The translations under genes were made by a program, and so were the position numbers. Below, one piece after another: positions 1,148 to 15,946 of a DNA stretch of 32,000 nt (its first letter is position 1; every line of letters begins with the position of its first letter). Under the pieces are notes generated by a model. The model had not been told where the DNA came from, searched no databases, and saw only the letters and a list, made by a program, of their open reading frames with translations. This DNA comes from Candidatus Electrothrix sp. GW3-4 (GTDB taxonomy: Bacteria; Desulfobacterota; Desulfobulbia; Desulfobulbales; Desulfobulbaceae), in contig NZ_CP147990.1 in the NCBI RefSeq assembly GCF_037902255.1, positions 450,001 to 482,000 of the forward strand. The letters run 5' to 3'.

Positions 1148-2935
1148 ATGCAGCAATTCATTTCTCCTCTTACCATCCTTTTCACGCTAGCTACGCTACT
1201 CGGTTCTGCTGTATCGGCATCAGCAGCCGGTATTGGCAGAAGAATTTGTGGGCCGTATAAACCCCTTGTGGTCCAGATAACGAGCCAATTTGCCCATGGG
1301 GCGCAGGAGCACGGTTTTGGCTTTCTTGTTGGCGAACAGGATCATCGGCTCTATATCGTCACTGCCAATCATGTTGTTCGTAGCAGATACCCTGACAACC
1401 CAACCGAACAGGTCTTGCTCCGTTTTTCCTGGGATCCCGGTGGAAGAGGCAACAGGGCTGAATTGCTCGACACGGTCTATAAACCCCTGGACCTGGCCCT
1501 GCTTCGTATAGATAAGCGGACGATCATGGGCACGAGAAGGGTTGAATGGAAGGGGCGTACCTGGTGCCGTCGCTGGCAAGTGGAAGAAAAGGTGTGGTTT
1601 ATTGGGCGCGCCCAAAAATGGTACGTGCCGCCGGACCAAAGGGCAGGTATCCTTCTGCGTCCTGAGGCGGATTTGTTGGGCTTTATTCATATAGATATTG
1701 ATTCCATCCAGCCCGGTACCTCTGGCGCGCCTCTGCTCATCAAAAACGGTCTTGTAGGTATGGTCGTTAACGATTCTCCAGAGAAAGCACAGGCCGTCAA
1801 TATTGATCATATTCGCCGATTTGTTTCTGTTGAAAATCCCTATCCTTGGAACCTGGTCAAGTATGAGAGGAACGCTGAACATACTGAAGTAACATCATCG
1901 ACAACGAGCAGCCGCATAAAAGATAATGACCAACCTAATGACCAATCGCCAGCTAAGGTTAAAGGCGATACAGTTCCCCAACAGAACAAGGTGACAAAGG
2001 GTAGTCAGGTGGTCAGTGGTGAGGGGGCGGGAGTTAAGATACTCCCTTATCCGCAACAGCTTCAAGGTACTGACAGGCCTCAGGGAGCAGCTCCGGCACA
2101 GCAGGAAGCCCAGACGACTCCGGCTGTTCCCCCTGCTCCATCTCCTCCCAAACCCGGTGATATGTTGTTTGAACCCATTACCAAGATAGAGCTCATCCGT
2201 ATCCCCGAAGGCTGTTTTGATATGGGCTCTCCAAAGGCGGATAAAAAACGCTATAATAATGAGGTGCCTCCGCACCAAGTCTGTATGGATGCCTTCTGGC
2301 TGGGAAAATATGAAGTGACATTGGCACAGTGGGTTAAGATCATGGGGAAAAAACCTCGTCGCTCCCATGGGAGAGGAACACATCCCGCAGTACCGGTTAC
2401 TTGGGAGGAAGCTCAGGAATTCATCAGTAGGTTGAATGAAAAAACAGGCTTGATGTTCCGTTTGCCCACCGAGGCAGAATGGGAGTATGCCGCACGAGCA
2501 GGGACGAGCACGATCCGGCATTGGGGGGATGATATATCCTGTGATCAGGCTATGTATAGCAATGATGCCAATGAGAATAGCTGTGTTGATTACGTGCAAC
2601 AGCATGGAGGAACTCTCGGTGTTGCAGCGCCTGTGGGGAGCTACCCCCCGAATGAATTTGGTCTCCATGACATGCTCGGTAATGTCAAAGAATGGTGCGC
2701 AGACTGGTATGGGAAAGAGTACTACTTCTCAAGTCCCAAAAAAAATCCCATAGGGCCTTCGCATTCAAGTACTGATCCACCTGCTCGTGTTCTTCGTGGG
2801 GGAAGTTGGTTGGATGGTTCTCGAATAATACGGGCCGCTGCTCGTAAATGGCTCCCTCCTGGAAGACGTTATTACGATACAGGATTTCGCCTTGTTTTGG
2901 AGGATCAAGGGAGAGTAGAGAGCGCACCAGAATGA
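1148..2935 (+). CDS. secreted trypsin-like serine protease fused to a C-terminal FGE-sulfatase (SUMF1-like) domain
   Basis: Signal peptide MQQFISPLTILFTLATLLGSAVSASAAG. Protease triad contexts TANHVV (His), DLALLRI (Asp), QPGTSGAPL (Ser). Pro/Gln-rich linker (PAVPPAPSPPKPG). C-terminal motifs RLPTEAEWEYAARAG, GLHDMLGNVKEWCADWY, RVLRGGSW and GFRLV are typical of the FGE-sulfatase fold. Confidence 0.85.
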   Translation: MQQFISPLTILFTLATLLGSAVSASAAGIGRRICGPYKPLVVQITSQFAHGAQEHGFGFLVGEQDHRLYIVTANHVVRSRYPDNPTEQVLLRFSWDPGGRGNRAELLDTVYKPLDLALLRIDKRTIMGTRRVEWKGRTWCRRWQVEEKVWFIGRAQKWYVPPDQRAGILLRPEADLLGFIHIDIDSIQPGTSGAPLLIKNGLVGMVVNDSPEKAQAVNIDHIRRFVSVENPYPWNLVKYERNAEHTEVTSSTTSSRIKDNDQPNDQSPAKVKGDTVPQQNKVTKGSQVVSGEGAGVKILPYPQQLQGTDRPQGAAPAQQEAQTTPAVPPAPSPPKPGDMLFEPITKIELIRIPEGCFDMGSPKADKKRYNNEVPPHQVCMDAFWLGKYEVTLAQWVKIMGKKPRRSHGRGTHPAVPVTWEEAQEFISRLNEKTGLMFRLPTEAEWEYAARAGTSTIRHWGDDISCDQAMYSNDANENSCVDYVQQHGGTLGVAAPVGSYPPNEFGLHDMLGNVKEWCADWYGKEYYFSSPKKNPIGPSHSSTDPPARVLRGGSWLDGSRIIRAAARKWLPPGRRYYDTGFRLVLEDQGRVESAPE

Positions 2936-4050
2936 GGCAGTAACAAGGTAAATCGTGTTCCTTTTTCTCTCCAACTCTGAATGTCGATGGTGCCCCCGAG
3001 GATTGTTACTCTTTCTCGTATGGTCGTTAATCCCAGACAGCCTTTTTCTTGCTGACTCTCAGCCAGGTCTGGCATGTCAAAGCCACAACCAAAGTCGGTG
3101 ATTTCAATACACAGGGAATCCGCCCTGTTAACAGTATCAAAATGGATCTTTTCTGTCCCTGAATGTTTGCCGATATTATTGACTATTTCCTGTAATATTC
3201 GATAAAGTTGATGCTGATCGTGTTTTGAGAAGTATTCCTGAATATGAATACTGCCTAAAACAACATCTATACCGTAATCTCGACTGAAGTTGTCCAGGAA
3301 TTCCTTAAGTGCCAAATCAAAGCCAAATTTTTCAATAATAACCGGCCAGAGATTCTGACAGATAGTCCTGGTACTTTCCAGAGTTCTTTGCAAGGTACTG
3401 TTGATAATAGTGGCTGCCTCCTGCCTCTTATCCTTGTCACTCGACTCAAGCTGAAAGCAAAAATTGTTGAACTGTAATTTCAATGCGATCAAATTTTGCC
3501 CGATATCATCGTGAAGTTCCATGGAGATACGTTTCCGCTCGTTTTCCTGGGCTTCAATAAGTCGGACAGAGAGCCGCTGTAACTCTTTGTATAGGCCTCT
3601 CAACTCATTTTCCATCCTCTTACGTTCACTGATATCCTCTTCAAGCTCTTGAACAAGTCGTTTGTTTTCCCGGACAAGAAGAAAGTTTTCACTGGCCTTG
3701 TCGAGAACTTGCAGCAGATCATTCTCAACCCATGGTTTGACGATATACTGGTAGATATGGCCCTTGTTGATTGAATCAATTATGTCAGCAACCTCTGTAT
3801 AGGCTGTTAAGATAATCCGAATCGCATCCTTATTATATTTCTTAATATGTTGAAGCAACTCAACGCCTGTCATACCAGGCATGCGCTGATCAGTAATAAT
3901 AATCGCAATGTCATTATTATTCTTTACAATTTCCAGTGCCTTCTGCCCAGAGTTTGCTGTGTATATTTGATATTTCGTCCTAAAGGCAATTGTGAAATTC
4001 GTTAAATTAACCTTTTCATCATCAACATAGAGCAGCTTTAATTTTGTCAA
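2905..4050 (-). CDS. hybrid receiver-histidine kinase (REC + HisKA_3 + HATPase_c)
   Basis: N-terminal receiver (LLYVDDE..., IIITDQRMPGMTGVELL, K in VKPW). Coiled-coil linker. H-box MELHDDIGQNLIALK (HisKA_3 type). ATPase motifs IVNNIGKHS, ITDFGCGF, GLGLTTIRERV. Its ATG overlaps the upstream kinase stop by 4 nt. Confidence 0.85.
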   Translation of the reverse strand: MTKLKLLYVDDEKVNLTNFTIAFRTKYQIYTANSGQKALEIVKNNNDIAIIITDQRMPGMTGVELLQHIKKYNKDAIRIILTAYTEVADIIDSINKGHIYQYIVKPWVENDLLQVLDKASENFLLVRENKRLVQELEEDISERKRMENELRGLYKELQRLSVRLIEAQENERKRISMELHDDIGQNLIALKLQFNNFCFQLESSDKDKRQEAATIINSTLQRTLESTRTICQNLWPVIIEKFGFDLALKEFLDNFSRDYGIDVVLGSIHIQEYFSKHDQHQLYRILQEIVNNIGKHSGTEKIHFDTVNRADSLCIEITDFGCGFDMPDLAESQQEKGCLGLTTIRERVTILGGTIDIQSWREKGTRFTLLLPHSGALSTLP

Positions 4051-5792
4051 AACGTTTCTCCTGGGGTCACCGGTAAAATGATTTCAAATACCGATCCGTT
4101 ACCAACATCACTCTGTACTTTGATATCACCACCATGCTGCCTGATAATTGAGTATGATATACCAAGTCCTAGACCGGTTCCCTTGCCAATCTCTTTGTTG
4201 GTAAAAAAAGGATCGAAGATCTTTGCCATGTCATGCGCATGGATACCGCAGCCAGTGTCTGAAAAATGGATATGAACATGCTCATTCCTCTGCTCTGTTT
4301 TTATAGTCAATTGCCCATCCCCATCCATAGCCTGGATACTATTATTTATAATGTTTAAAAATACTTGTCCTATGCGTCCCGGCAGGCAATGAACGAGCGG
4401 AAGAGGGCCATAGTCACGACGAATGGTTATGTTTTTCAAGAGTTGTTTATCAACATAATTGATCGTGGAATTAATGACTGTATGCAGGTCAAGCGGGGTC
4501 ATCTTTTCTACGTCTTCCCGTGAAAAGATTTTAAGATCACGAATGATACCAGTTGTCCGCGTGGTTCCTTCTTCCATATTTTCCATCAGTTGGTCAATGG
4601 TAATAAAGAGCTCCTCATAAGAAAGTTTTTCTTTTATGGCTCTTACTTCCTCAAATTTTTCATCCAGGATATTGGATCCTCTTGCTTTTTCAACTTCTTC
4701 ATATCTGGTAAGAATCTCTTTCATCTCATCGAAAGAGCGATGCAAAGAAGGCAGGGCCCCGGAGATAAAATTAACGGTATTATTGAGTTCATGTGCCACT
4801 CCAGCTACAAGTTGGCCCATGGCTGCAAGCTTTTCTTTCTGGATAAGTTGCTCCTGGGTTTCTTTCAGTTGCCTCAGCGCCTCGCTAAGATGCGTATTGC
4901 TGTTCTTAAGTTTTTCTTGTCTCTGGTGCAGCTCATCATTTGCCTCGGTGAGTTGGAGTGTTCGGTATTTTACCTTTTCTTCAAGTCCTTCATTTAATTC
5001 ACTAATGGTCTGAAATGATTTTTCAAGATCATCGACCATGCTGGTATAGGTTTCGGTCAGCATCTTCAGGTCGCTGGGGTGTTCAGTTTTTCCTTCCCGC
5101 ATCCTTATGGTTAGTACCAATTTTTGTAATGGTTCCATTACATTCTGTATAACAAGAAACGTTGTCAACAGAATAACAAAAAGAAAGATCAGGACTGAGA
5201 CGCCTGTCTGAATAAAGATATTGCGTACACCTTTTTTAAAGAATTTTTTGGAAAGAACAATTGCCGCATAGCCAACAACCTCTTGTGCTGAACTCTTCTC
5301 CTCTTCCTCAAAATACCAATCTTCTTCCTGGCTTGGCGTTGCATTAAAAAAAATCTGTCCCCATAATATAAAACTATCCTTAGTCTCCATGCTCTGATAG
5401 TCACTTTTATCATGTTGCCTGAAAATCATTAGCATTTTCATTGGGTTGCCAATAATGCGTAATCTCTTGGCCGGATTTTTTGTTTTTTGAAGAAGCATCT
5501 CCCCGTCTTTATTCCAGATAACCACCTCAAACACATCATCCTGCTGTAGTAGTCCCGACACTGAGGCATACATTTCATCTTTATTTTCAGTAACAACAGC
5601 AAGGCTGATCGAATGGGCAAGCAGCCGTATAAGGGTTGCCCCATGGGCATCGTGGGAAGACGTATATGTTTTTTTTTGTATACTGATCAAAACAATATTA
5701 AATAACGCTCCGATACACACCATAGTCACAATCAGGAGAAGAAATATCTTGGTACTCAAACTCTTCGGCAAAGCAAGAAAGGTTTTATTCAT
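4047..5792 (-). CDS. membrane sensor histidine kinase (2 TM, extracytoplasmic domain, coiled coil, HisKA, HATPase_c)
   Basis: TM1 IFLLLIVTMVCIGALFNIVLI and TM2 GVSVLIFLFVILLTTFLVI. H-box GVAHELNNTVNFI. N-box FLNIINNSIQAM. G-boxes DTGCGI and GTGLGLGISYSIIRQHGG. Overlaps the upstream gene by 8 nt. Confidence 0.85.
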   Translation of the reverse strand: MNKTFLALPKSLSTKIFLLLIVTMVCIGALFNIVLISIQKKTYTSSHDAHGATLIRLLAHSISLAVVTENKDEMYASVSGLLQQDDVFEVVIWNKDGEMLLQKTKNPAKRLRIIGNPMKMLMIFRQHDKSDYQSMETKDSFILWGQIFFNATPSQEEDWYFEEEEKSSAQEVVGYAAIVLSKKFFKKGVRNIFIQTGVSVLIFLFVILLTTFLVIQNVMEPLQKLVLTIRMREGKTEHPSDLKMLTETYTSMVDDLEKSFQTISELNEGLEEKVKYRTLQLTEANDELHQRQEKLKNSNTHLSEALRQLKETQEQLIQKEKLAAMGQLVAGVAHELNNTVNFISGALPSLHRSFDEMKEILTRYEEVEKARGSNILDEKFEEVRAIKEKLSYEELFITIDQLMENMEEGTTRTTGIIRDLKIFSREDVEKMTPLDLHTVINSTINYVDKQLLKNITIRRDYGPLPLVHCLPGRIGQVFLNIINNSIQAMDGDGQLTIKTEQRNEHVHIHFSDTGCGIHAHDMAKIFDPFFTNKEIGKGTGLGLGISYSIIRQHGGDIKVQSDVGNGSVFEIILPVTPGETF

Positions 5793-6699: not shown

Positions 6700-6758
6700 A
6701 AAGTAAAAAAGAAGTGTGTTCTCTGGTGAGAAAAGGCTTTTTACTATTCGAACGGGAT

Positions 6759-6776
6759 AAAGCTACTAGTAGCTTT
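6759..6776. promoter_or_regulatory. perfect 18-bp palindrome AAAGCTACTAGTAGCTTT in the divergent intergenic region (candidate operator)
   Basis: Read directly; self-complementary over all 18 nt. Lies between the divergent binding-protein operon and the TonB-dependent receptor gene. A second dyad, TGTAAA-n6-TTTACA, follows immediately. Confidence 0.3.
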
Positions 6777-7261
6777 GTAAACAAATATTTACAAGCAAAT
6801 TTTGCACCGAATGTTCGCCAGGATTTGAAGAAAAAAATATTCCTAGGAAAAAAATAAAAGATATATTGGATAGATTCGAGTACTCTTTCTTTTTAAATTC
6901 ATCATTCTTAAAAATAATGCTGTTGTAAAAAAAGTCCGATCTACCGATGAAAAAGGATACTCCCCTCGCTGTTTTGCTGCTCCTCACAACCTTTCTTGCA
7001 GTCCCATCTGCTCAGGCCAATAACACGCGCCTGGAAGACAAACTCCTGGACCTGTATTTTGACGAAGAGGAGCTGGTGGAAACAGCGACCCGTTCTCCCA
7101 AACCCATCAGCCAGGTGGCGGAAAATGTAACCATCGTCACCGCCGAAGATATTGAGGCCATGCATGCCCATACCCTGGCCGAAGTGCTCAACCGGCAGGC
7201 GGGAGTCTTTGTCGATTTCTTTGGTCAGGATTTCCTTGGAGACGCAGCTGTCCGGCTTCTA

Positions 7262-7290
7262 GTGCTCTGTCACGACTTAATTTTAGGGTA
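7262..7290. repeat. IS630 terminal inverted repeat (end distal to the transposase start)
   Basis: GTGCTCTGTcacgacttAATTTTAGGGTA. Matches the reverse complement of 8462-8490 at 24 of 29 positions by hand alignment, with outer 9 and inner 12 nt identical. Confidence 0.8.
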
Positions 7291-7965
7291 AACGGATTTT
7301 AATTTGCACCGGGCATCAGAAATTTTCATTTGCCACTCAACACCACGTTGAGTGTTATTCACATCGCTTGACCATGCGGCAATCTCTTTCTGTAACGTCT
7401 CGATATCTCCTATACGACGATTGGCAAGACATTGTCGAGTCATGGAGCTCAATTCGTTTTCTGCTATATTGAGCCAGCTACCATGTTTCGGTGTGTAACA
7501 AAATTCAATCCGGCGTACTAATGCACGAGCACGTTCAGGAGGAAAAGCCTCATAAAAAGCTCCCTTTGTATGGGTGTTGAGATTATCGCAAACCAACGTT
7601 ATCTTTTCACATTCTGCATAGCGACCTTCAAGGAGGCGAGCCACTTCGATCGCCCAATCTGTTTTAGTCCGCCGAGGACGAGCTGTGGCTTCACGCCAGC
7701 CTGAAAGAGGCTCGGTGAACATGAAAATACTGGCTGTTCCGTTACGCTCATACTCATAATCAACGCGTTTAGCATGATTTTTAGTTGCCGGGATAGGTAA
7801 ACGAGTTTCCTTTATCAGCTGAACTGGTTGTTCGTCCATACAAAGAAAAGGATGATTAGGATTATACGGTCTTTCATAAACCTCTATCACATCTTCCATG
7901 TTGGCCACGAATTCCGCATCGTGTTTTGGTGGAATAACCCAGTATTGGATTTTCCGGTTGTTCAT
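7270..7965 (-). CDS. IS630-family transposase, DDE catalytic part (orfB)
   Basis: DDE_3-type motifs: LCMDEQPVQL (D), ITLVCDNLNTHTK (D), HGSWLNIAENELS (E). Confidence 0.85.
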   Translation of the reverse strand: MNNRKIQYWVIPPKHDAEFVANMEDVIEVYERPYNPNHPFLCMDEQPVQLIKETRLPIPATKNHAKRVDYEYERNGTASIFMFTEPLSGWREATARPRRTKTDWAIEVARLLEGRYAECEKITLVCDNLNTHTKGAFYEAFPPERARALVRRIEFCYTPKHGSWLNIAENELSSMTRQCLANRRIGDIETLQKEIAAWSSDVNNTQRGVEWQMKISDARCKLKSVYPKIKS

Positions 7966-8420
7966 CCCGTTTTTTTTATTACTTGGCGAATAGTTTCATG
8001 GCTGATCGACGGAACTATTTCCAATTCAACAACATGTCGGGCTAAAAGGCGCAGTGACCAATTTGCGTATCCCGGCGGAGGTGAACCAAGACGAGTGGCA
8101 ATGATTTTAACCTCCTGCTCCCCATTCAATAGTTTCGGAGTAGGCGGGGTTGCACGTTTTTTTCCGTCAAGAGCCTGTTGAAAACCGTGCAAAACAAAAT
8201 TTTGACGGATGTTCTCAACCGTTTTTGTCCTACAGTTGAATGCTTCTGCTATCCTGCTGTCTTTCCAACAGGGGCCATTTGCATCAGCTTTCAATAAGAT
8301 GTGAGCACGACGGACTTTCTGGCTGCCCCCCGAAAGCTTTTTGATAACCTCCTGTAAATGACAGCGTTCTTTTGGAGTCAATTGGACAATGTATTTTTTT
8401 GGCATGAAATCCTCTTTCAA
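7962..8420 (-). CDS. IS630-family transposase, N-terminal HTH DNA-binding part (orfA)
   Basis: 152 aa with helix-turn-helix-like segments (LTPKERCHLQEVIKK..., IAEAFNCRTKTVENIRQNF...). Its stop overlaps the ATG of the DDE ORF (ATGA at 7962-7965). Confidence 0.8.
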   Translation of the reverse strand: MKEDFMPKKYIVQLTPKERCHLQEVIKKLSGGSQKVRRAHILLKADANGPCWKDSRIAEAFNCRTKTVENIRQNFVLHGFQQALDGKKRATPPTPKLLNGEQEVKIIATRLGSPPPGYANWSLRLLARHVVELEIVPSISHETIRQVIKKTG

Positions 8421-8461
8421 TTTTTTTTTCGGACAACATGCTACATTAATTTTAAATACGC

Positions 8462-8490
8462 TACCCTAAAATTTAGATTTTACAGAGCAC
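8462..8490. repeat. IS630 terminal inverted repeat (end proximal to the transposase start)
   Basis: TACCCTAAAATTtagattttACAGAGCAC, the reverse complement partner of 7262-7290. Confidence 0.8.
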
Positions 8491-10173
8491 TAGGGTCCCA
8501 GCGACATCATGTGTTATTGCTCCTTGACGGGGTGCGCTTAAACCTTAACTCAAACGGCAGAGCCTTAACCCATTTTATCCCTCTCGGCATTATCAAGCGT
8601 ATTGAGATCATCAAAGGCGCGGCCTCTTCCAGCTGGGGCTCTGCCCTTGGTGGCGTGATCAATATTATCACCAAGGATGTCGGGAAGTCCAAGCGCCCCA
8701 CCGGTAATGTCCATGTCAGTTATGGCAAGAGGAACAGCCGTGATGTTGCAGCCGATGTGGCTGGCAAGGTGAAGGCCTTGGGCTATTATTTCCATGGCGG
8801 CAATATTGATTCGGAGGGGCTACGCCTTGACCGCTATGCTGAAAGAGATTCCGTTTACTGCAAAATGCAGCTTGAATTGCCCCACACCTCGCGCCTGACA
8901 GCTACCGCTGGCTCCAGTGATCCCTTTTATAAAAACCTTGACTGGCAGGATGCCTGGGGAATTACCGATCTCAATCTCTATACAGATGTTGAAAATCGAA
9001 ATTTCTGGGGCACCCTCTATTTTGATACCGAAATAACACAAGAGGTCACTCTCCATCTCTCTGGGCAGTATTTTGACAATTCCTATGCTGCCAACAGGCA
9101 TTCCTTGGGGACGGGGCTGGGTGGCTCCCAGGGTGAGCTGATCTTTGGGGAGAAATGGGACGATGAGGTTAGCTCTTTTATCGGTCGACTCACCTGGACA
9201 AGAGAATCTGTTATTGCTAATCTCGGTTTTGAGGCAAGCCGTAGCGAAATGCAATATGTAAGTCGATCAGGGGGCTTCTTTGATGGGCCATCATTCACAG
9301 AAGATGAGCCGGTCACAGAGGACCGGCACGGCGTATATGCTAATCTCACCTACGTCAAAGGTGATTTTTCCATTACCCCTGGCTTGCGTTATGACGACCA
9401 CTCCAATTCAGAGGAGACGGTCAATCCCTCTCTGGGCCTCACCTATCTGCTTACCCACGACACCCTTATTAAAGGTGCTATTGCTAAGGGGTTTTCAGCC
9501 CCTTATTTATCCTCCTCTTCCACTTCTCCAGCTCTTGAACCGGAAAATACCTGGACATACCAGGCTGGCATTGAAACAGGACGTATTATTCCCTCTCTTC
9601 ATCTCAAGGGGACCTTGTTTTATCACGATATTCAAGATGCATGGGATTACAATATGGTTCCCTGGGCCAATACCGGCACCATTCACCTTAATGGTTTTGA
9701 GATTGAGGCAAAAACTGCTGATTACCATGGTCTGAGCCTGACCGGCAATTTCACCTACGTTAAAGAAAAAAGTAAGGCGACGAGTACCACCTGGGAAGAT
9801 GATGAGACCTCTATCGCTAATCTTATTTTTTCTTACCGTAACACGACATATGGTCTACGCACAGAAATGGCTGGTCATTATTACAGGATGACTGATTATG
9901 TAATCAATGAAAAGCCCGAACATAGTACTGTTCTCTGGGATCTTCTCATTGCAAAAGACCTTGATATCTTATCCCCCGGTGGCGAAATTTACCTCAAAGG
10001 GCGTAATGTATTTAACGGCGATCAATATTTTGATATTGACTACTCCAACCCGCAGCAATGGATAGAGGCTGGGCTGACTTTCAAATTTTAGATTGACGTC
10101 TTCTTTACTCATCTGTTAGATTAAGCTATTGTACTCATTATGTTGCTCAACTTTACTAGCTTGGAGGTTCAAA

Positions 10174-10272
10174 ATGAAGAAAAAAATGGTCGTTCTCAGG
10201 AAAGGAAAAAATGTTAAAGCTGTAGCTACGGATGGCACTTGTTGTAAAAGCTCACCCTCAGCTGACAAATAA
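10174..10272 (+). CDS. small peptide, candidate RiPP precursor (MKKKMVVLRKGKNVKAVATDGTCCKSSPSADK, 32 aa), not in the ORF track
   Basis: Hand translation. GGAGG at 10163-10167 lies 6 nt before the ATG. Lys-rich N-terminal half, then a Cys-Cys/Ser/Asp C-terminal half. Followed by a terminator hairpin and then a radical SAM/SPASM gene. Confidence 0.5.
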   Translation: MKKKMVVLRKGKNVKAVATDGTCCKSSPSADK

Positions 10273-10297
10273 CAGGTTAACCTGTTGGCTTTTACTG

Positions 10298-10328
10298 AGG
10301 AGAGCTGCGGCTCTCCTTTTTTTGTTTT
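10298..10328 (+). terminator. intrinsic terminator or attenuator between the peptide ORF and the rSAM gene
   Basis: aGGAGAGC-tgcg-GCTCTCCt stem (7-8 bp, GC-rich, 4-nt loop) followed by TTTTTTTGTTTT. Confidence 0.7.
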
Positions 10329-10344
10329 CCTTCTGGAGAGTTAG

Positions 10345-11655
10345 ATGCTGTTCACCCCCTACCTCACCGTCCACCGCCATCATTCCATCCCGGGACAGGT
10401 CCTGCTTTTTTCCACCAAGACCGGGGCCCTTGTCCTGCTACCGGAAGAGGATTTTACCGCCCTGCACAACGGGGAGACGGAAAATGAGTATATTGAGCCT
10501 CTCAGCGAAATGGGGTTTCTTGTCCAAGACCTGGAGGCGGAACACCGGGAAGTTGCCCGATATATGGAGGACATTAACCGCCATAACCCCAATCTGACCC
10601 TGGCAATTATCTTGGGAATGGAGTGTAACTTCGCTTGCAAGTACTGTTTTGAAGGGAAACAGAAGGGGAAGAAGGTGATGGATGACCGGACAGCGGATCA
10701 GCTCATCTCCTTTATCAAAGGGCAGTTCCGGCCGGGTAAGAAAAAGCTCATCTTACAGATCTACGGCGGCGAACCCCTCCTCTATACCAAGAGGATTATC
10801 TACCTGGCTGAGCGTTTGAAGCCCTTTATTGAGGAAAAGGGCGCAGAATTTACCTTTACTCTGATCTCCAATGGTTCCCTGCTCAGCGAAAAGGTGGTGG
10901 AGGAGTTGAATGAATGGGGCCTGGACGGTGTCAAGGTAACCATTGACGGACCACCTGAGAACCATAATCAGTTCCGGCCCTTCAAGTCTGGCGCTGGCAG
11001 TTTTGCTGTTATTGCAGGTAACCTGAAAAAGGTCTGCACCAAGACCAAAATTCGCCTGGGTGGTAACTATACCAGTGCAACATACCGGAATTTTGCCACT
11101 GTCCTCGACCTGCTTGCCCAGCAAGGCATAAGCCCGGACAAGATTGACCGGGTCAGCTTTAATATCGTCATGCAGGTCCAGGATAAAATTACCAGCAATG
11201 AATTTGTAGGAGGGTGCGCCACCATCAACGAACCCTGGCTGCGCGATGCTGCTCTCCATGTGCGGAAAGAGGTGTTACAAAGGGGGTATCCCATCGGAGA
11301 ACTTGGCCCGGAACCCTGTGCCGTTGAGATGGATGCCGCCTTTACTGTGCATTACGACGGCAGCCTTTATAAATGCGTGTGCTGGGTAGGGCATGAACAG
11401 TATAAAATCGGCGATATCTGGCAGGGTGTCACTGAAGACTACCAGGAGTCCCACCATCTCTTGCACTGGCAACGGGAAGAGAAATGCCAGAAATGCAAAT
11501 ACCTGCCCCTCTGCTTCGGCGGTTGTCGTTATATGGCCTATCAGCGCGACGGGCATATGGGGCAGGTGGATTGTCGGAAGCCCTTTCTTGATGCGACCCT
11601 GGAAAGTATGCTCTTGCAGGACCTCCAGTATCTGCACGGGCAGATAAGTGACTGA
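10345..11655 (+). CDS. radical SAM/SPASM peptide-maturase-like enzyme with an N-terminal RRE-like extension
   Basis: CNFACKYC (Cx3Cx2C) at about residues 94-101. About 90 aa precede it (LLFSTKTGALVLLPEEDFTALHNGE...), resembling the leader-recognition domain of peptide rSAMs. C-terminal SPASM cysteines (YKCVCW..., CQKCKYLPLCFGGCRYMAY, VDCRKPF). GGAGAG RBS before the ATG. Confidence 0.85.
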   Translation: MLFTPYLTVHRHHSIPGQVLLFSTKTGALVLLPEEDFTALHNGETENEYIEPLSEMGFLVQDLEAEHREVARYMEDINRHNPNLTLAIILGMECNFACKYCFEGKQKGKKVMDDRTADQLISFIKGQFRPGKKKLILQIYGGEPLLYTKRIIYLAERLKPFIEEKGAEFTFTLISNGSLLSEKVVEELNEWGLDGVKVTIDGPPENHNQFRPFKSGAGSFAVIAGNLKKVCTKTKIRLGGNYTSATYRNFATVLDLLAQQGISPDKIDRVSFNIVMQVQDKITSNEFVGGCATINEPWLRDAALHVRKEVLQRGYPIGELGPEPCAVEMDAAFTVHYDGSLYKCVCWVGHEQYKIGDIWQGVTEDYQESHHLLHWQREEKCQKCKYLPLCFGGCRYMAYQRDGHMGQVDCRKPFLDATLESMLLQDLQYLHGQISD

Positions 11656-11752
11656 ACGCCGAACGCATCCTTCTTGCAAAGCGGCATTGAATCCTTCCAC
11701 GACCTCGTCCGGGCGTTCGGTGGAAGGAGTTTGGTGCTGCTGAAGGGTGGTT

Positions 11753-11986
11753 TCACACCGTATGAACAGTGGATATCACTGCCGTGGCAATAAGCCCCCC
11801 TGCAACAAAGATTGCGCTGCCGATAAAGACAGCCGCCGCCGCTGCAACATAGCGGGGGCCAGCCGTCATCATATAGCGTATGCTGAGCAACATCCCTGAG
11901 GCCCCGATCCCCACCACGGTCACCGAGATAACCAGAATGATCTTTTGAAGAGCACTCAGATGGTCAAGGGTTTCATGTTTGGACAT
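11753..11986 (-). CDS. small two-TM membrane protein, hypothetical
   Basis: 77 aa with two hydrophobic helices. AGAGGGA Shine-Dalgarno 6 nt upstream. 39 nt downstream of the HIT gene on the same strand. Confidence 0.55.
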   Translation of the reverse strand: MSKHETLDHLSALQKIILVISVTVVGIGASGMLLSIRYMMTAGPRYVAAAAAVFIGSAIFVAGGLIATAVISTVHTV

Positions 11987-12025
11987 TTGTAATCCCTCTT
12001 TTTCTTCCAGATCGAGATACGTCTT

Positions 12026-12367
12026 TCAACCCGGAGGCCAGGTCAGGCTGCGCCCACCCAGGACATGCATGTGGATATGGAAAACCGTCTGTCCGGCATC
12101 TGTTCCGTTATTCAGGACCAGGCGAAACTGTTCAATGCCTTCTTTTTTTGCGACCTGATTGCCGATTCGTATCAACTTGCCCATGAGCTGTTCGTCCTCT
12201 TCGTTCACCGCAGCAGGACCGCTGATATGTTTTTTCGGGATGACAAGAAAATGGACAGGCGCTGTAGGGGCGATGTCCCGAAAGGCTAACACCTCATCAT
12301 CCTCATAGAGTTTGTCTGAAGGGATATCACCCTTAATAATCTTGCAGAAAAGACAATCTTCAGCCAT
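12026..12367 (-). CDS. HIT-family (histidine triad) nucleotide hydrolase, HinT-like
   Basis: CLFCKII..G.IP start and the histidine triad HIHMHVLGG; 113 aa is typical. Confidence 0.9.
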   Translation of the reverse strand: MAEDCLFCKIIKGDIPSDKLYEDDEVLAFRDIAPTAPVHFLVIPKKHISGPAAVNEEDEQLMGKLIRIGNQVAKKEGIEQFRLVLNNGTDAGQTVFHIHMHVLGGRSLTWPPG

Positions 12368-12442
12368 AGCTTGCTCCTTTTTTGAAAACGTATGGTTATC
12401 CTTGGAGGGGTAGTGTATGGGCGAGCTTTGTGAGCGCCCGTA

Positions 12443-13111
12443 TTACCTTATTTTTTTCCCTGTCTTTGTCGAGCCGATTTTACCGGTATGGGGACGGAAT
12501 TGGAGTTCCAGCGAGTCCCCACGCAACCGGATATCCACCGGCTCCAGTTGGACAAAGATTGGGGTGACACCCAGTTTTCCTGCCAGCGGATCCAGTTTAT
12601 CCAGAGGCAGGGCATATTCCCTGCTCAGACCATCCAGCAGGGGGGCCAACGAGGCCGCCGCAGGGTCCTGTTGCCGGGCTTGCTTATAAAAGGTTGGTCT
12701 GAGAAAAAGGGTTTTTCGCTCTCGATCATAACGGAGCGCGATGTCGCAACTGACCGGCAGGACCATCTCTCCCAGCTTGATCTGGATAGTCTGGCCTCCG
12801 ACCTGGGCATTGACGGCCATATTTCTGCCGCTGAGCTGTCCCTGGACAGCAATGACATTTTGTTGTACCGCAAGCCGGGTAATGGAGTCCACGACAAAAC
12901 TTCCTCGGAAGTTGCTGTTTCTCTTCTGCTGTTCAATGGGAAGAGGGAGGAGGCTCGTCAGGGCCTGATGCAGGGTAGGAAGGGGCAGGTTCAGGACGAT
13001 CGGTGGGCTCTGTACGGCCTGGGTCGGTGTTGTAAGCAGGCTGAAGGCGCAGAGAACGAGCAGGAATATGTATTGATGGCGGTAAGGAGAAAAAGGCATG
13101 TGCTCAATCAA
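12443..13111 (-). CDS. hypothetical secreted/periplasmic protein
   Basis: Signal-peptide-like N-terminus (YIFLLVLCAFSLLTTPTQAVQ) and globular composition. Preferred over the fully overlapping plus-strand ORF 12488-13126, which is Arg/Gln-rich and has no features. Confidence 0.5.
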   Translation of the reverse strand: MIEHMPFSPYRHQYIFLLVLCAFSLLTTPTQAVQSPPIVLNLPLPTLHQALTSLLPLPIEQQKRNSNFRGSFVVDSITRLAVQQNVIAVQGQLSGRNMAVNAQVGGQTIQIKLGEMVLPVSCDIALRYDRERKTLFLRPTFYKQARQQDPAAASLAPLLDGLSREYALPLDKLDPLAGKLGVTPIFVQLEPVDIRLRGDSLELQFRPHTGKIGSTKTGKKIR

Positions 13112-13510: not shown

Positions 13511-14881
13511 ATGGCAGCAGCGCAGGTGGGTGTGAAATTAACCGTGACGTCGGAGTGTTTTCTCAGCGGGGCGCCAGAGGAACTCCAGGCCGCTATCCAG
13601 GAGCAGCTGACCGTGGATAATCCCAAATATTTGGCTGCCCAGCGTTATTCCCGTTGGCTGGACAAGCAGATCAAGCCAAAGCTCCATTTCTATCGCCTGG
13701 AAGGGGGGAGTCTGGTCTTTCCCCGGGGCTTTGGCAATCGGGCAGTACTTCTCTGTCGCCGTCTGTTGGGGGAAGATCCGGTGCTCATCGATCAACGGCG
13801 GAAGGTGGCGCCCATTAACTCTGATTTCCTTGGGGAGCTGCGTCCCTATCAGCAAGAGGCGGTCCAGGCCCTGACTCAGCACGCCTTTGGGGTGTTAGAG
13901 GCCGGGACCGGTTCCGGCAAGACGGTCATGGCCCTCAAGATGATTGCTGAGCGCAGGCAACCCACTATCATTCTCGTTCATTCCCGCGAGCTCCTGGAAC
14001 AGTGGATAGAGCGGATCGCGCTTTTTCTCAACATCAGGGCCGGGCAGGCTGGTGGCGGGCGTTATGAGCCCCGACCCGTGACCGTGGCCATTGTCAATAC
14101 GGCCCGGAATCGTCTGGACGATCTGGTCCCGCGCTTTGGTCATCTCATTGTTGACGAATGCCATCGGGTGCCAGCCAGCCTCTTTACCGAGGTAGTGAGC
14201 GGCTTTGATTCCTTTTACATGCTGGGCCTGTCTGCTACGGCCTTTCGTCGGGAAATCGGGATGACCAGGCTTATCTATAGCTATATGGGCGATCGGGTCC
14301 ACAGGGTGGATCCGGGAGTACTGGCAGAGACAGGCGCTGTTGTTCGGCCTGATCTTGTCCAGCAGGAGACTGCTTTTTTTACCCCCTATACCGGGGAATA
14401 TCCCAAGCTGATCAAGGCCCTGACCAGGGACCGGGCCCGCAATCAACAGATCATCAGCGATGTGGTGGAGAGGATTCGCCAAGGGGACGAGGGCACAGTG
14501 CTGTTGGTCTCAGACCGGGTGGCCCATTGTCAGGAACTGCTGAATGGTCTGCAAGAGGAGAGCATTATCGCGGAAATGCTCACCGGAAGTATTTCACTGA
14601 CTGCCCGGGCAGAAATTGTGCAACGGGTGCATAAGGGCAAGGTCCAGGTACTTTTGTCCACCTTACAGCTGATCAGTGAGGGGTTTGACTGCCCTGGCCT
14701 CTCCACCTTGGTGCTAACCACGCCGATTCGCTTTGAGGGTCGGCTTCTCCAGGTGGTGGGGCGGATCATGCGGCCAGCTGAGGGCAAGAAGGCCCTGGTC
14801 ATTGATTATGTAGATACCCGGATCGGGGTCCTGCACCGCTCCGGCCTGGCCCGGGCCGAGATGTTTGCGCGCTGGCAGTAG
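13511..14881 (+). CDS. superfamily-2 DEAD/DEAH-box helicase (ResIII/XPB-like core) with a roughly 110-aa N-terminal domain
   Basis: Q-like motif LRPYQQEAV, Walker A EAGTGSGKT, Walker B VDECHRV, motif III LGLSATAFRR, C-terminal helicase lobe (LLSTLQLISEGFDCPGL, GRIMRP). AAAGGGGAG RBS. Confidence 0.85.
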   Translation: MAAAQVGVKLTVTSECFLSGAPEELQAAIQEQLTVDNPKYLAAQRYSRWLDKQIKPKLHFYRLEGGSLVFPRGFGNRAVLLCRRLLGEDPVLIDQRRKVAPINSDFLGELRPYQQEAVQALTQHAFGVLEAGTGSGKTVMALKMIAERRQPTIILVHSRELLEQWIERIALFLNIRAGQAGGGRYEPRPVTVAIVNTARNRLDDLVPRFGHLIVDECHRVPASLFTEVVSGFDSFYMLGLSATAFRREIGMTRLIYSYMGDRVHRVDPGVLAETGAVVRPDLVQQETAFFTPYTGEYPKLIKALTRDRARNQQIISDVVERIRQGDEGTVLLVSDRVAHCQELLNGLQEESIIAEMLTGSISLTARAEIVQRVHKGKVQVLLSTLQLISEGFDCPGLSTLVLTTPIRFEGRLLQVVGRIMRPAEGKKALVIDYVDTRIGVLHRSGLARAEMFARWQ

Positions 14882-14905
14882 GTGCTGTGATTCCTGGATA
14901 GGGTT

Positions 14906-15946
14906 ATGATTTTTCAATGGCATATTACAAACCGGTGTAATCTTCGCTGCCTGCATTGCTACCAGCAGACCTATGAGGATACCAGCGAGTTTTCGCTGAC
15001 AGATATCGAGCAGGTTCTGGAGCAGATTGATCAATTCAGTACCAAGCACCCGGAGCGGGGGCGTATTCATCTCACCCTAACCGGTGGCGAGCCCTTGTTG
15101 TTTCCCCATCTTGAAGCCCTGATAAAAAAGGTGCATGAGCGAAAAACGATCCGAACTTATAGCCTGCTCACTAACGGGCATTATGTGGATGCCGCACGTG
15201 TTCAATTCCTGAAAAAGTATCCCCCTGCCTATGTACAAATCAGTTTAGATGGCACCCAGGAAAAGCATGAGATAATACGAGGGAAAGGGAGTTTTGTAAA
15301 GGCTGTCCAGGGGGTTCGCCAGCTGGTCGCAGCACGTATCAGAACGACTGTATCTTTCACCGCTACAAAGAAAAATTATAAGGATATATTAAGATTATCC
15401 TTTTTCTGTAATCGGCTGAATATCAATCATCTTTGGACCGATCGGGTGATACCGAGTCCGGGAGACGCGGAGGGGCTCTCCCTTGGACCTGATGAGGTCA
15501 GAAAATATATCTGGCTGTTGCGGCTGGCCGTTTTCATCAACCTGCATCATCCCTTTACCCACAATCGGATTTCTTTTGCCAGGGGCTTGCAGTTCCTCTC
15601 CTTTCCCCTCCAAAAGCCGTACCGGTGTGCTGCCGGAAGAACCCTGCTTGCTCTCATGCCCAATGGTGATCTTTATCCTTGCAGAAGGATGGAACATCTG
15701 GTGGGGAATTTTTTTGAACGTAGTATTTCGAAAATATACGAGACAAATGAATTGCTCAACCGCCTTCAGGACAATGCTCTTCCTGTCTGGGGATGCGAAA
15801 AATGCAGGCATGCGTGGTCCTGTCATGGCGGGCTGAAATGCCTTGCAAGGGCAAAGAATGGTGATCCCTTTACCCGGGATCCAGGTTGCTATGTTCGTTC
15901 AGAAAAAGTGAAAGGGGCAGTGGATGCGGTCGTAGAGAAGGTATGA
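14906..15946 (+). CDS. radical SAM/SPASM-domain enzyme with the cluster motif at the extreme N-terminus (no RRE domain)
   Basis: NRCNLRCLHCY at residues 9-19. GGEPLL SAM-binding motif. C-terminal SPASM pattern (YRCAAGRTLLALMPNGDLYPCRRM ... CEKCRHAWSCHGGLKCLA ... DPGCY). Starts 24 nt after the helicase stop. Confidence 0.85.
   Translation: MIFQWHITNRCNLRCLHCYQQTYEDTSEFSLTDIEQVLEQIDQFSTKHPERGRIHLTLTGGEPLLFPHLEALIKKVHERKTIRTYSLLTNGHYVDAARVQFLKKYPPAYVQISLDGTQEKHEIIRGKGSFVKAVQGVRQLVAARIRTTVSFTATKKNYKDILRLSFFCNRLNINHLWTDRVIPSPGDAEGLSLGPDEVRKYIWLLRLAVFINLHHPFTHNRISFARGLQFLSFPLQKPYRCAAGRTLLALMPNGDLYPCRRMEHLVGNFFERSISKIYETNELLNRLQDNALPVWGCEKCRHAWSCHGGLKCLARAKNGDPFTRDPGCYVRSEKVKGAVDAVVEKV

Follow-up and report, generated by a model that had tools for sequence, protein, structure and literature searches.

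A 32,000-nt stretch of the genome of Candidatus Electrothrix sp. GW3-4 (contig NZ_CP147990.1, positions 450,001 to 482,000), here called the window and used for all numbering, encodes on its forward strand a 32-aa peptide with a Cys-Cys (CC) pair and, just downstream, a 436-aa radical S-adenosylmethionine (rSAM)/SPASM enzyme. An earlier note, written by a model that read the letters of this DNA, had described the two genes and the hairpin between them as a locus resembling those of ribosomally synthesized and post-translationally modified peptides (RiPPs). The main result of the present analysis is that this peptide-maturase unit is embedded in a conserved module of receptor, binding-protein and kinase genes that occurs across several anaerobic phyla. 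The module has six genes: those for a receiver/kinase, a sensor kinase and a binding protein, divergent from the genes for a TonB-dependent receptor (TBDR), the peptide and the rSAM enzyme.

The precursor peptide gene (10174-10272, + strand) encodes MKKKMVVLRKGKNVKAVATDGTCCKSSPSADK and was recognized from its translation and from its homologues beside rSAM genes. Read from the sequence, the open reading frame (ORF) starts with the ATG at 10174 and stops with the TAA at 10270-10272, leaving 72 nt to the rSAM gene downstream. The ribosome-binding site (RBS), GGAGG at 10163-10167 on the + strand, lies 6 nt before the ATG; the small ORF and its RBS are as described in the earlier note, with the start corrected from 10175 to 10174. 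The leader is rich in Lys and carries the family motif (M)VVLxxGxxVxxVA, and the core (CCKSSPSADK) starts at the invariant C23-C24 and has at its end the basic residue of position CC+9. The peptide has no signal sequence. The peptide and rSAM ORFs share one reading frame, with 24 sense codons between them bounded by TAA and TAG; the shared frame is probably coincidental, and a protein-database search with a 47-aa extended version of the peptide ORF gave no candidates. The exact peptide is absent from a collection of 15 billion proteins. When 20 family peptides were looked up in the same exact manner, half were absent from the collection and the rest were unnamed or 'hypothetical'; the precursor goes systematically unannotated in public data.

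Homologous loci were collected from genomes (6 loci), metagenomes (79 loci) and 7 further contigs, with rSAM genes 39-91% identical to that of the window, and the occurrence of the peptide was counted at the 87 rSAM copies that have at least 135 nt of upstream sequence. At 83 of the 87, an ORF of 28-45 aa that encodes a Cys-Cys pair and is preceded by a GGAG-type RBS lies upstream and ends 43-138 nt before the rSAM start. Under a fixed detection rule the peptide ORF was found in 68 of 73 real upstream regions; the same rule gave one hit in 73 reverse complements, one in 73 shuffled sequences and none in 67 downstream regions. Among ten orthologues of 32 codons, the proportion of synonymous differences (pS) is 0.29-1.0 versus 0.11-0.34 for nonsynonymous differences (pN), and the dN/dS of the peptide is 0.1-0.5 wherever it could be computed. 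A chance spacer ORF, lying next to an rSAM enzyme that acts on some other substrate, would account for an ORF that is short, absent from most annotations and without an exact match in the protein collection, but hardly for detection in 68 of 73 regions versus 0-1 of ~70 in the controls, for pS well above pN, for the strong RBS found in nearly all loci, or for the profile match at E 4e-9 described below; the probability of such an accident is negligible. As judged from the comparison of sequences, the 32-residue ORF is a genuine gene whose predicted product, a precursor, is conserved under purifying selection.

The precursor family is now fixed by 76 distinct sequences that align without gaps around an invariant CC pair and share a basic residue at CC+9 (Arg or Lys in 58 of 75 peptides, mostly at or beside the C-terminus); Gly occupies position CC+3 in 51 of the 76. 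Conservation of the CC motif beside orthologous rSAM genes, which the earlier note had singled out for checking, is borne out by this invariance and by the presence of the peptide at 83 of the 87 copies. The leader pattern of the family as a whole is I-[IV]-V-L-D-x-G-x-D. The clade to which the window belongs has a Lys-rich leader, VLKKGKNVK.VA, and a core of the type CCxGxPSAxK; the window peptide fits this pattern, with Ser replacing Gly at CC+3. A hidden Markov model (HMM) built with that clade left out, from 56 peptides beside distant enzymes (<55% identity), recovers the window peptide with E 4.4e-9; no other six-frame ORF in the 32 kb gave a hit, the runner-up standing at 0.27. A comparison of seven peptides, that of the window and six homologues from elsewhere in the family, with the NCBIfam models gave no match even at E<=10; the curated companion peptide model of the geopeptide system is probably TIGR04229.

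Several loci lack the peptide. In an Electrothrix-like metagenome contig (L012, 2282-2612) the peptide ORF is missing and the locus is rearranged: the place of the peptide is taken by AT-rich sequence and by a decayed partial copy of the 5' end of the rSAM gene, and the terminator hairpin and the rSAM gene itself are kept. L012 is a natural precursor-less variant. Three rSAM homologues of ~42% identity (L069, 2416-2746; L071, 124-454; L073, 1-281) also stand without an upstream peptide, and no receptor was found upstream of L069 (2.7 kb available) or of L071 and L073 (<0.5 kb each). The upstream regions of L069 and L071 have GGGGGAGTTCAGAA motifs in common as repeated or palindromic elements; that of L073 contains a long direct repeat.

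The rSAM/SPASM peptide maturase gene (10345-11655, + strand, 436 aa) was assigned by its score of 484.4 bits on TIGR04280, 'geopeptide radical SAM maturase' (cut-off 400; E 3e-145; residues 1-429 of 436). The model is of the type 'hypoth_equivalog', that is, the family was defined computationally. Three relatives (L009, L064 and L089) score 517-628 bits, and many homologues in Desulfobulbales, Desulfurivibrionaceae, Thiovibrio, Desulfogranum, Geobacteraceae and Nitrospirota carry the same NCBI name. The closest genomes by rSAM gene are those of Candidatus Electrothrix, at 89-91% identity. The runner-up NCBIfam models are all maturases of Cys-rich peptides: CefB (NF038107; 182 bits versus a cut-off of 600), TIGR04463 (169 versus 525), Clo7bot (141 versus 600), PapB (NF047865; 140 versus 340) and SCIFF (TIGR03974; 103 versus 425). 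Because all of these scores fall below the cut-offs, the maturase stands outside the SCIFF, PapB and CefB families. In everything that can be tested, the enzyme is a TIGR04280 protein. PADLOC reports only generic viperin-like rSAM similarity, so the maturase is not a defence gene.

The 436-aa ORF described in the earlier note is confirmed, with its CX3CX2C motif and a full set of SPASM cysteines. The radical-SAM cluster motif C94-X3-C98-X2-C101 (CNFACKYC; 10624-10647, + strand) is invariant in alignments of 11 and of 72 sequences, and Pfam Radical_SAM matches the protein at 55 bits. The SPASM domain (11317-11574, + strand; TIGR04085, 57.4 bits versus a cut-off of 27) has its auxiliary-cluster cysteines in the pattern C325-X13-G339-X4-C344, C381-X2-C384-X5-C390-X3-C394, C410, which is invariant in 72 homologues, as is C291 upstream of the domain. 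An AlphaFold2 (AF2) model of the maturase, made from the 72-sequence alignment, has a mean pLDDT of 94.2 and a pTM of 0.90. Its best Foldseek matches in the PDB are the CteB structures 5WHY and 5WGG (E 3e-22; TM 0.68-0.70; ~440-460 columns, the full length), followed by anSME in second place and then TigE, ChlB, SuiB and SkfB. CteB is the best solved relative by sequence as well (E 1.7e-26).

The N-terminus of the maturase has the fold of a domain that could hold the leader. Residues 1 to ~85 (10345-10599, + strand) are assigned as a RiPP recognition element (RRE)-like, presumably leader-binding domain from the secondary structure of the AF2 model and the Foldseek match to CteB, the SCIFF thioether synthase, which has an N-terminal RRE. 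In the model, beta-strands at 7-10, 18-23 and 29-33 are followed by helices at 34-41, 50-55 and 63-80, so that residues 7-80 form a beta-beta-beta-alpha-alpha-alpha arrangement with pLDDT >90, the comparison with CteB being one of full-length proteins. The RRE assignment rests on the fold because Pfam detects no PqqD in the N-terminus. Across 76 peptide/enzyme pairs, the net charge of the leader is inversely correlated with the charge of enzyme residues 1-88 (Spearman -0.73), as against +0.34 with the charge of the rest of the enzyme. The N-terminal domain has a mean charge of -7.4 in enzymes with basic leaders versus ~0 in those with acidic leaders. This correlation is suggestive but not proof, since the sequences are not phylogenetically independent. 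Fold and charge together suggest that the N-terminal domain may bind the leader; the earlier note had proposed a leader-binding extension of roughly 90 aa, for which the modelled RRE-like fold and the charge covariation speak and the missing PqqD match does not.

Several expression signals surround the peptide gene. A sigma-70-type promoter candidate for the peptide gene (10093-10122, + strand; found by consensus scan and conserved in four relatives) has a -35 element, TTGACG, at 10093-10098 and an extended -10 element, TGtTAGATT, ending at 10122. The TTGACG-N18-TAGATT site listed in the earlier note is thus present, but taken alone it is no better than chance (3 such sites found versus 3.6 expected). 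What lifts it above the background is its conservation: a -35 TTGAC and an extended -10 (TGnTAnnnT) occur at the same position after the TBDR stop in the window, L001, L004, L026 and L013, which makes it probable that the peptide gene is served by a promoter of its own. In nearly all loci the peptide ORF is preceded by an RBS of the GGAG type. Downstream of the peptide lies an intrinsic terminator, GGAGAGC-TGCG-GCTCTCC plus T7 (10299-10323, + strand), which was identified by terminator scan, folding and conservation. Its arms are at 10299-10305 and 10310-10316 and its T-run at 10317-10323; the scan called 9 pairs. The 76-nt stretch that contains it (10270-10345) folds at -28.5 kcal/mol (z -3.4).

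This same hairpin follows the peptide stop in 20 of 20 loci of the Lys-leader clade, 19 of them with a T-run (L026 has none). The loops vary, and the stems show three kinds of double-sided compensatory change (GGAGGGC/GCCCTCC, AGAGAGC/GCTCTCT and GAAGAGC/GCTCTTC). By a cruder test applied across the family, hairpin and T-run are present in 53 of 72 unique loci. From the T-run to the rSAM start there are only ~20 nt in the window and usually 10-30 nt in relatives. This leaves no room for a promoter, and the maturase would then have to be expressed by read-through, in agreement with the leaky terminator of the earlier note. The RBS of the maturase gene, GGAGAG (10335-10340, + strand), lies 4 nt before the rSAM start, and a TGGAGA-like element is conserved there in the alignment. 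The regulatory anatomy of the unit is defined by these elements: an own promoter, a conserved terminator and, as we infer, a maturase made from read-through transcripts.

Tandem Cys codons in a short ORF directly before a terminator could also belong to a cis-acting leader peptide that is no substrate, in which ribosome stalling at the Cys codons would make attenuation of the rSAM gene responsive to Cys; in the window, GCTCACC (10252-10258) could indeed base-pair, though imperfectly, with the upstream arm of the terminator. Conservation of this potential antiterminator does not extend to L001, L004 or the other loci, and amino-acid conservation under purifying selection runs from residue 1 of the peptide to its C-terminus, with a leader whose charge co-varies with that of the enzyme N-terminal domain. 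Furthermore, Rfam gave no match on 9800-12600, so there is no riboswitch or known leader, and the enzyme belongs to a peptide-maturase family. The leader-peptide explanation is very improbable, and both it and the chance ORF are, on the comparative data, effectively excluded. Regulatory attenuation, for which the earlier note had named the hairpin, was rejected: no conserved alternative (antiterminator) structure was found among related loci, and what is conserved is the terminator hairpin alone, a plain intrinsic terminator. The unit as a whole, precursor, terminator and maturase, fares well as a RiPP-like one, given the TIGR04280 score, the conserved CC peptide, the purifying selection, the conserved terminator and the CteB match.

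The TBDR gene ends at 10091, just before the promoter candidate. Its 3' part, encoding the rest of the plug and the beta-barrel (8493-10091, + strand), corresponds by tblastn to residues 110-641 of an orthologue (8493-10088) and matches Pfam TonB_dep_Rec_b-barrel at 93 bits. Its 5' fragment, with the signal peptide and the start of the plug (6947-7260, + strand), corresponds to residues 10-108 (6974-7258) and matches Pfam Plug. Divergent from the receptor gene is the gene for a periplasmic solute-binding protein of PF04392 (5785-6699, - strand; Pfam ABC_sub_bind, 73.5 bits), with a signal peptide evident as an N-terminal hydrophobic segment. A sensor histidine kinase gene follows (4047-5792, - strand; Pfam HATPase_c); transmembrane (TM) helices at residues 18-36 and 197-215 flank a periplasmic domain of ~160 aa. 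The last gene of the series encodes a receiver-HisKA_3-HATPase hybrid (2905-4050, - strand; Pfam Response_reg, HisKA_3 and HATPase_c), which is probably the next step of a phosphorelay. The 6700-6946 region between the binding-protein and receptor genes shows high conservation when the window is compared with L001 and L004, and it contains the palindromes AAAGCTACTAGTAGCTTT and TTGTAAACAAATATTTACAA, which could be regulator sites.

This arrangement recurs throughout the family. At 42 of the 46 rSAM copies with enough sequence, a same-strand TBDR gene stands directly upstream, and 29 of 36 loci that extend far enough have a divergent gene for a PF04392 binding protein. A histidine kinase gene adjoins that of the binding protein in L007, L008, L009, L011 and L092 and in 31 loci, and receiver-containing proteins are usually encoded at the matching position in related loci. 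The same architecture is seen in Desulfogranum, Thiovibrio, Desulfobacterales, Geobacteraceae and Nitrospirae. The conserved module has no gene for an inner-membrane importer. The link to a TonB receptor, which the earlier note had offered as speculation, is strengthened by this synteny and by the added binding protein and kinase; of the signals that genomic context can provide, the TonB-receptor association is the strongest.

The units have also been duplicated. Whole TBDR-peptide-rSAM units stand in tandem in L003/L010 (two modules) and L015 (two modules), and partial duplication has left two rSAM genes in L025 and two TBDR genes in L033. The paralogues have diverged strongly: their enzymes are ~48% versus 70% identical to that of the window, and peptides such as MKKKITILNKGKNVQAVASLEGCCLGKPSATK stand beside MASEIIIVFESGQDDQEIAETTTCCTNAQAPLRITS. 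In 24 loci of a sister clade with acidic leaders, a gene for a half-size MFS membrane protein (189 aa, about six TM helices) overlaps the rSAM stop and is translationally coupled to the rSAM gene, for example at L040 6388-6957 and L092 7302-7871. The half-MFS protein is a candidate exporter and consistent with export of the peptide. No such gene is present in the window or in the Electrothrix-clade loci.

The receptor gene of the window itself is broken. An IS630-family insertion sequence of ~1.2 kb (7259-8493, - strand; recognized by its inverted repeats and by Pfam DDE_3 and HTH_32) splits it between the positions for residues 108 and 110 of the orthologue. The terminal inverted repeats of the element, each of 32 nt (7259-7290 and 8462-8493), are 84% complementary; a TA flanks it on each side, and its transposase is encoded in two minus-strand ORFs (HTH_32, 7962-8420; DDE_3, 7270-7965). 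Receptor orthologues are uninterrupted in L001, L004, L026 and L012, and no second IS630 copy was found in the window or in any related locus collected. The peptide, maturase, binding-protein and kinase genes are intact. The earlier note was right to place the locus immediately downstream of a receptor ORF, but in this genome the gene is split by the insertion, and the uptake arm is probably inactive here.

We regard it as on balance probable that the locus is a 'geopeptide'-type RiPP unit in which expression is set by the terminator and the peptide is modified at the CC pair, exported, re-imported and sensed in the periplasm. The 32-aa gene would have a promoter to itself and a strong RBS for translation. 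Most transcripts would end at the strong intrinsic terminator after the peptide gene, and because of this the precursor mRNA would be in excess, with maturase made from the read-through transcripts only. The maturase would bind the leader, through the motif VVLxxGxxV..VA, with its N-terminal RRE-like domain, and charge complementarity between the Lys-rich leader and the acidic domain would contribute to the binding. The enzyme would then use its radical-SAM cluster, together with a pair of auxiliary [4Fe-4S] clusters in the SPASM domain, to modify the Cys-Cys pair that opens the ~10-residue core. The mature peptide, of ~1-1.3 kDa, would be too big for porins and would act outside the cell; the receptor would return it across the outer membrane, and the binding protein and the kinase would sense it in the periplasm. 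Going by synteny, the mature peptide would be a metallophore-like or autoinducer-like ligand. In this form a vague "RiPP-like" call becomes a hypothesis that can be tested, that of a peptide ligand which is made, exported, re-imported and sensed.

Several points weigh against this reading. No observed modification of any family member is on record, and literature searches turned up no paper about the family. An Asp or Glu acceptor of the kind used by PapB is not conserved in the core. When the first 90 residues of four family members were compared with Pfam on their own, no PqqD/RRE match appeared, and part of the correlation between leader and N-domain charge is a clade effect. In the window clade, the conserved module contains neither an exporter nor a leader protease. 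Because the receptor is disrupted, this organism cannot have the full loop proposed here. Scans of the upstream regions of receptor and peptide gave no Fur box or sigma-54 promoter above background, although a search with an E. coli-type consensus is a weak test, and the associated receptors have no conserved Cys or Sec; their matches to the NCBI families of selenocysteine-motif TonB receptors are weak and far below the cut-offs. With no such promoter element and no conserved receptor Cys, nothing points to a particular metal.

The missing exporter and leader peptidase, together with the lack of an inner-membrane importer and of a signal sequence in the peptide, would equally suit a product that stays inside the cell or the periplasm, a Cys-derived metal-binding peptide, chaperone or cofactor that handles the cargo of the TBDR, the synteny then reflecting co-regulation. 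The peptide and rSAM genes have their own promoter and are intact although the receptor is broken, which fits such a role. It is harder to reconcile with the half-MFS gene coupled to the rSAM gene in 24 sister-clade loci, with the duplication of TBDR-peptide-rSAM units as wholes whose peptides and receptors have diverged as cognate pairs would, and with the periplasmic binding protein and kinase, which suggest an extracytoplasmic ligand. We consider the intracellular role unlikely.

For the chemistry within the geopeptide reading, the most likely outcome is an intramolecular thioether that would join Cys sulfur to a carbon atom of residues further along the core, as in the closest characterised relatives, CteB and PapB, and we give it somewhat less than an even chance. 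The case for thioethers is no more than an analogy, since a conserved acidic acceptor is missing and the enzyme does not reach the cut-off of the PapB, SCIFF or CefB model. Like CteB (5WGG, 5WHY), a sactipeptide-type thioether synthase, the enzyme combines an N-terminal domain, RRE-like in the model, with an rSAM barrel and a SPASM domain that has two auxiliary clusters, and its presumed substrate contains Cys; identity to CteB is ~20%, and the score on the SCIFF model falls short of the cut-off. SCIFF peptides have six Cys in 45 residues, whereas the window peptide has a single CC pair, and SCIFF loci, unlike the window module, have no known link to TonB receptors. PapB, the rSAM/SPASM enzyme of the ranthipeptide freyrasin, cross-links Cys sulfur to side-chain carbons within a short core, and its precursor gene lies directly upstream of the maturase gene as in the window. 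It has no long N-terminal domain, the match beginning at residue 86 of the window enzyme, and its substrates contain repeated CX3D motifs, which are absent from the window peptide. The order of precursor, terminator and maturase that the earlier note likened to sactipeptide and ranthipeptide clusters is present, and the enzyme is related to the SCIFF, PapB and CefB families without belonging to any of them.

The product could have the same role through a different modification: Cys heterocyclisation (thiooxazole, SbtM), formylglycine-type oxidation (anSME), epimerisation, or C-C cross-linking of aromatics. All models of characterised thioether maturases score below their cut-offs, anSME is the second-best structural match, and the cores of other clades are rich in F, Y, W and P (CCRGPFxxFR); there is also no conserved acidic acceptor. 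Yet the two Cys are the sole invariant residues of the core, the nearest families (CefB, TIGR04463, Clo7bot, PapB and SCIFF) act on Cys-rich peptides, and the top structural match is the thioether synthase CteB, so that we hold another chemistry to be quite unlikely, somewhat more so than the intracellular role.

Taken as a geopeptide-type unit, the module resembles two known circuits. Methanobactin operons (MbnA, MbnT, MbnE) likewise pair a Cys peptide with a dedicated TBDR and a periplasmic binding protein, an analogy drawn in the earlier note and now backed by the synteny of the family. Maturation there is by MbnBC, whereas the window has an rSAM/SPASM enzyme and no module gene of the DUF692/MbnB type, and a sigma/anti-sigma pair there contrasts with the PF04392 binding protein and histidine kinase here. 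PfeS/PfeR-PfeA of Pseudomonas is a siderophore-responsive two-component circuit. It, too, couples an outer-membrane receptor to a histidine kinase, encoded beside it, that detects the receptor's ligand in the periplasm. The window module differs in its separate solute-binding protein, its multi-step relay and its presumed ligand, a ribosomal peptide from the same locus.

The closest comparison is with the geopeptide system of TIGR04280 itself. The window enzyme, like those of that system, passes the cut-off, and the window peptide is homologous to the CC peptides beside the top TIGR04280 scorers, including a Geobacteraceae locus. The window belongs to a divergent clade of Ca. Electrothrix and other Desulfobulbales, in which the leader is Lys-rich rather than acidic, the core is of the CCxGxPSAxK type versus CCRGPFxxFR elsewhere, and no half-MFS gene adjoins in the window. 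The enzyme family has thus already been named by NCBI, but its substrate peptide is almost never annotated as a gene. The searches found no paper mentioning 'geopeptide', TIGR04280 or TIGR04229, no work on an rSAM/SPASM-TonB Cys-Cys system, and nothing useful about kinase-linked binding proteins in the literature on PF04392/COG2984; as far as the searchable literature shows, the family is experimentally uncharacterised. The window copy is a further member, from a divergent Lys-leader clade and with a broken receptor, which makes this particular window less exciting.

In a wider and more tentative proposal, which we think rather unlikely to hold in full, geopeptides would be an unrecognised class of secreted, rSAM-tailored Cys-Cys peptides, each with its own TBDR and binding-protein/kinase sensor, and would serve anaerobes of sediments (Desulfobulbales, cable bacteria among them, Geobacteraceae and Nitrospirota) as a ribosomal peptide metallophore or autoinducer system in which peptide/receptor pairs diversify by module duplication. 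A study of nickel homeostasis in cable bacteria lists several TonB-dependent transporters of unknown substrate (PMC11247825). The receptors of the module are candidates for one such transporter role; the link to nickel is speculative.

Other genes of the window lie outside the module. Just past the receiver/kinase gene, 1148-2935 encodes a 595-aa protein with trypsin-like peptidase and FGE-sulfatase (formylglycine-generating enzyme-like) domains, which is not conserved beside the module in other loci. On the other side, an SF2 helicase gene (13511-14881; ResIII, DEAD and Helicase_C) is directly followed by a second, unrelated radical SAM/SPASM gene (14906-15946, 346 aa) that falls below every NCBIfam cut-off, its best score being 126 versus 350 on SbtM. 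PADLOC gave only weak pVip-like and PbeA-like matches over this pair (13511-15946). The helicase and the second rSAM protein could be a defence-type or maturation pair.

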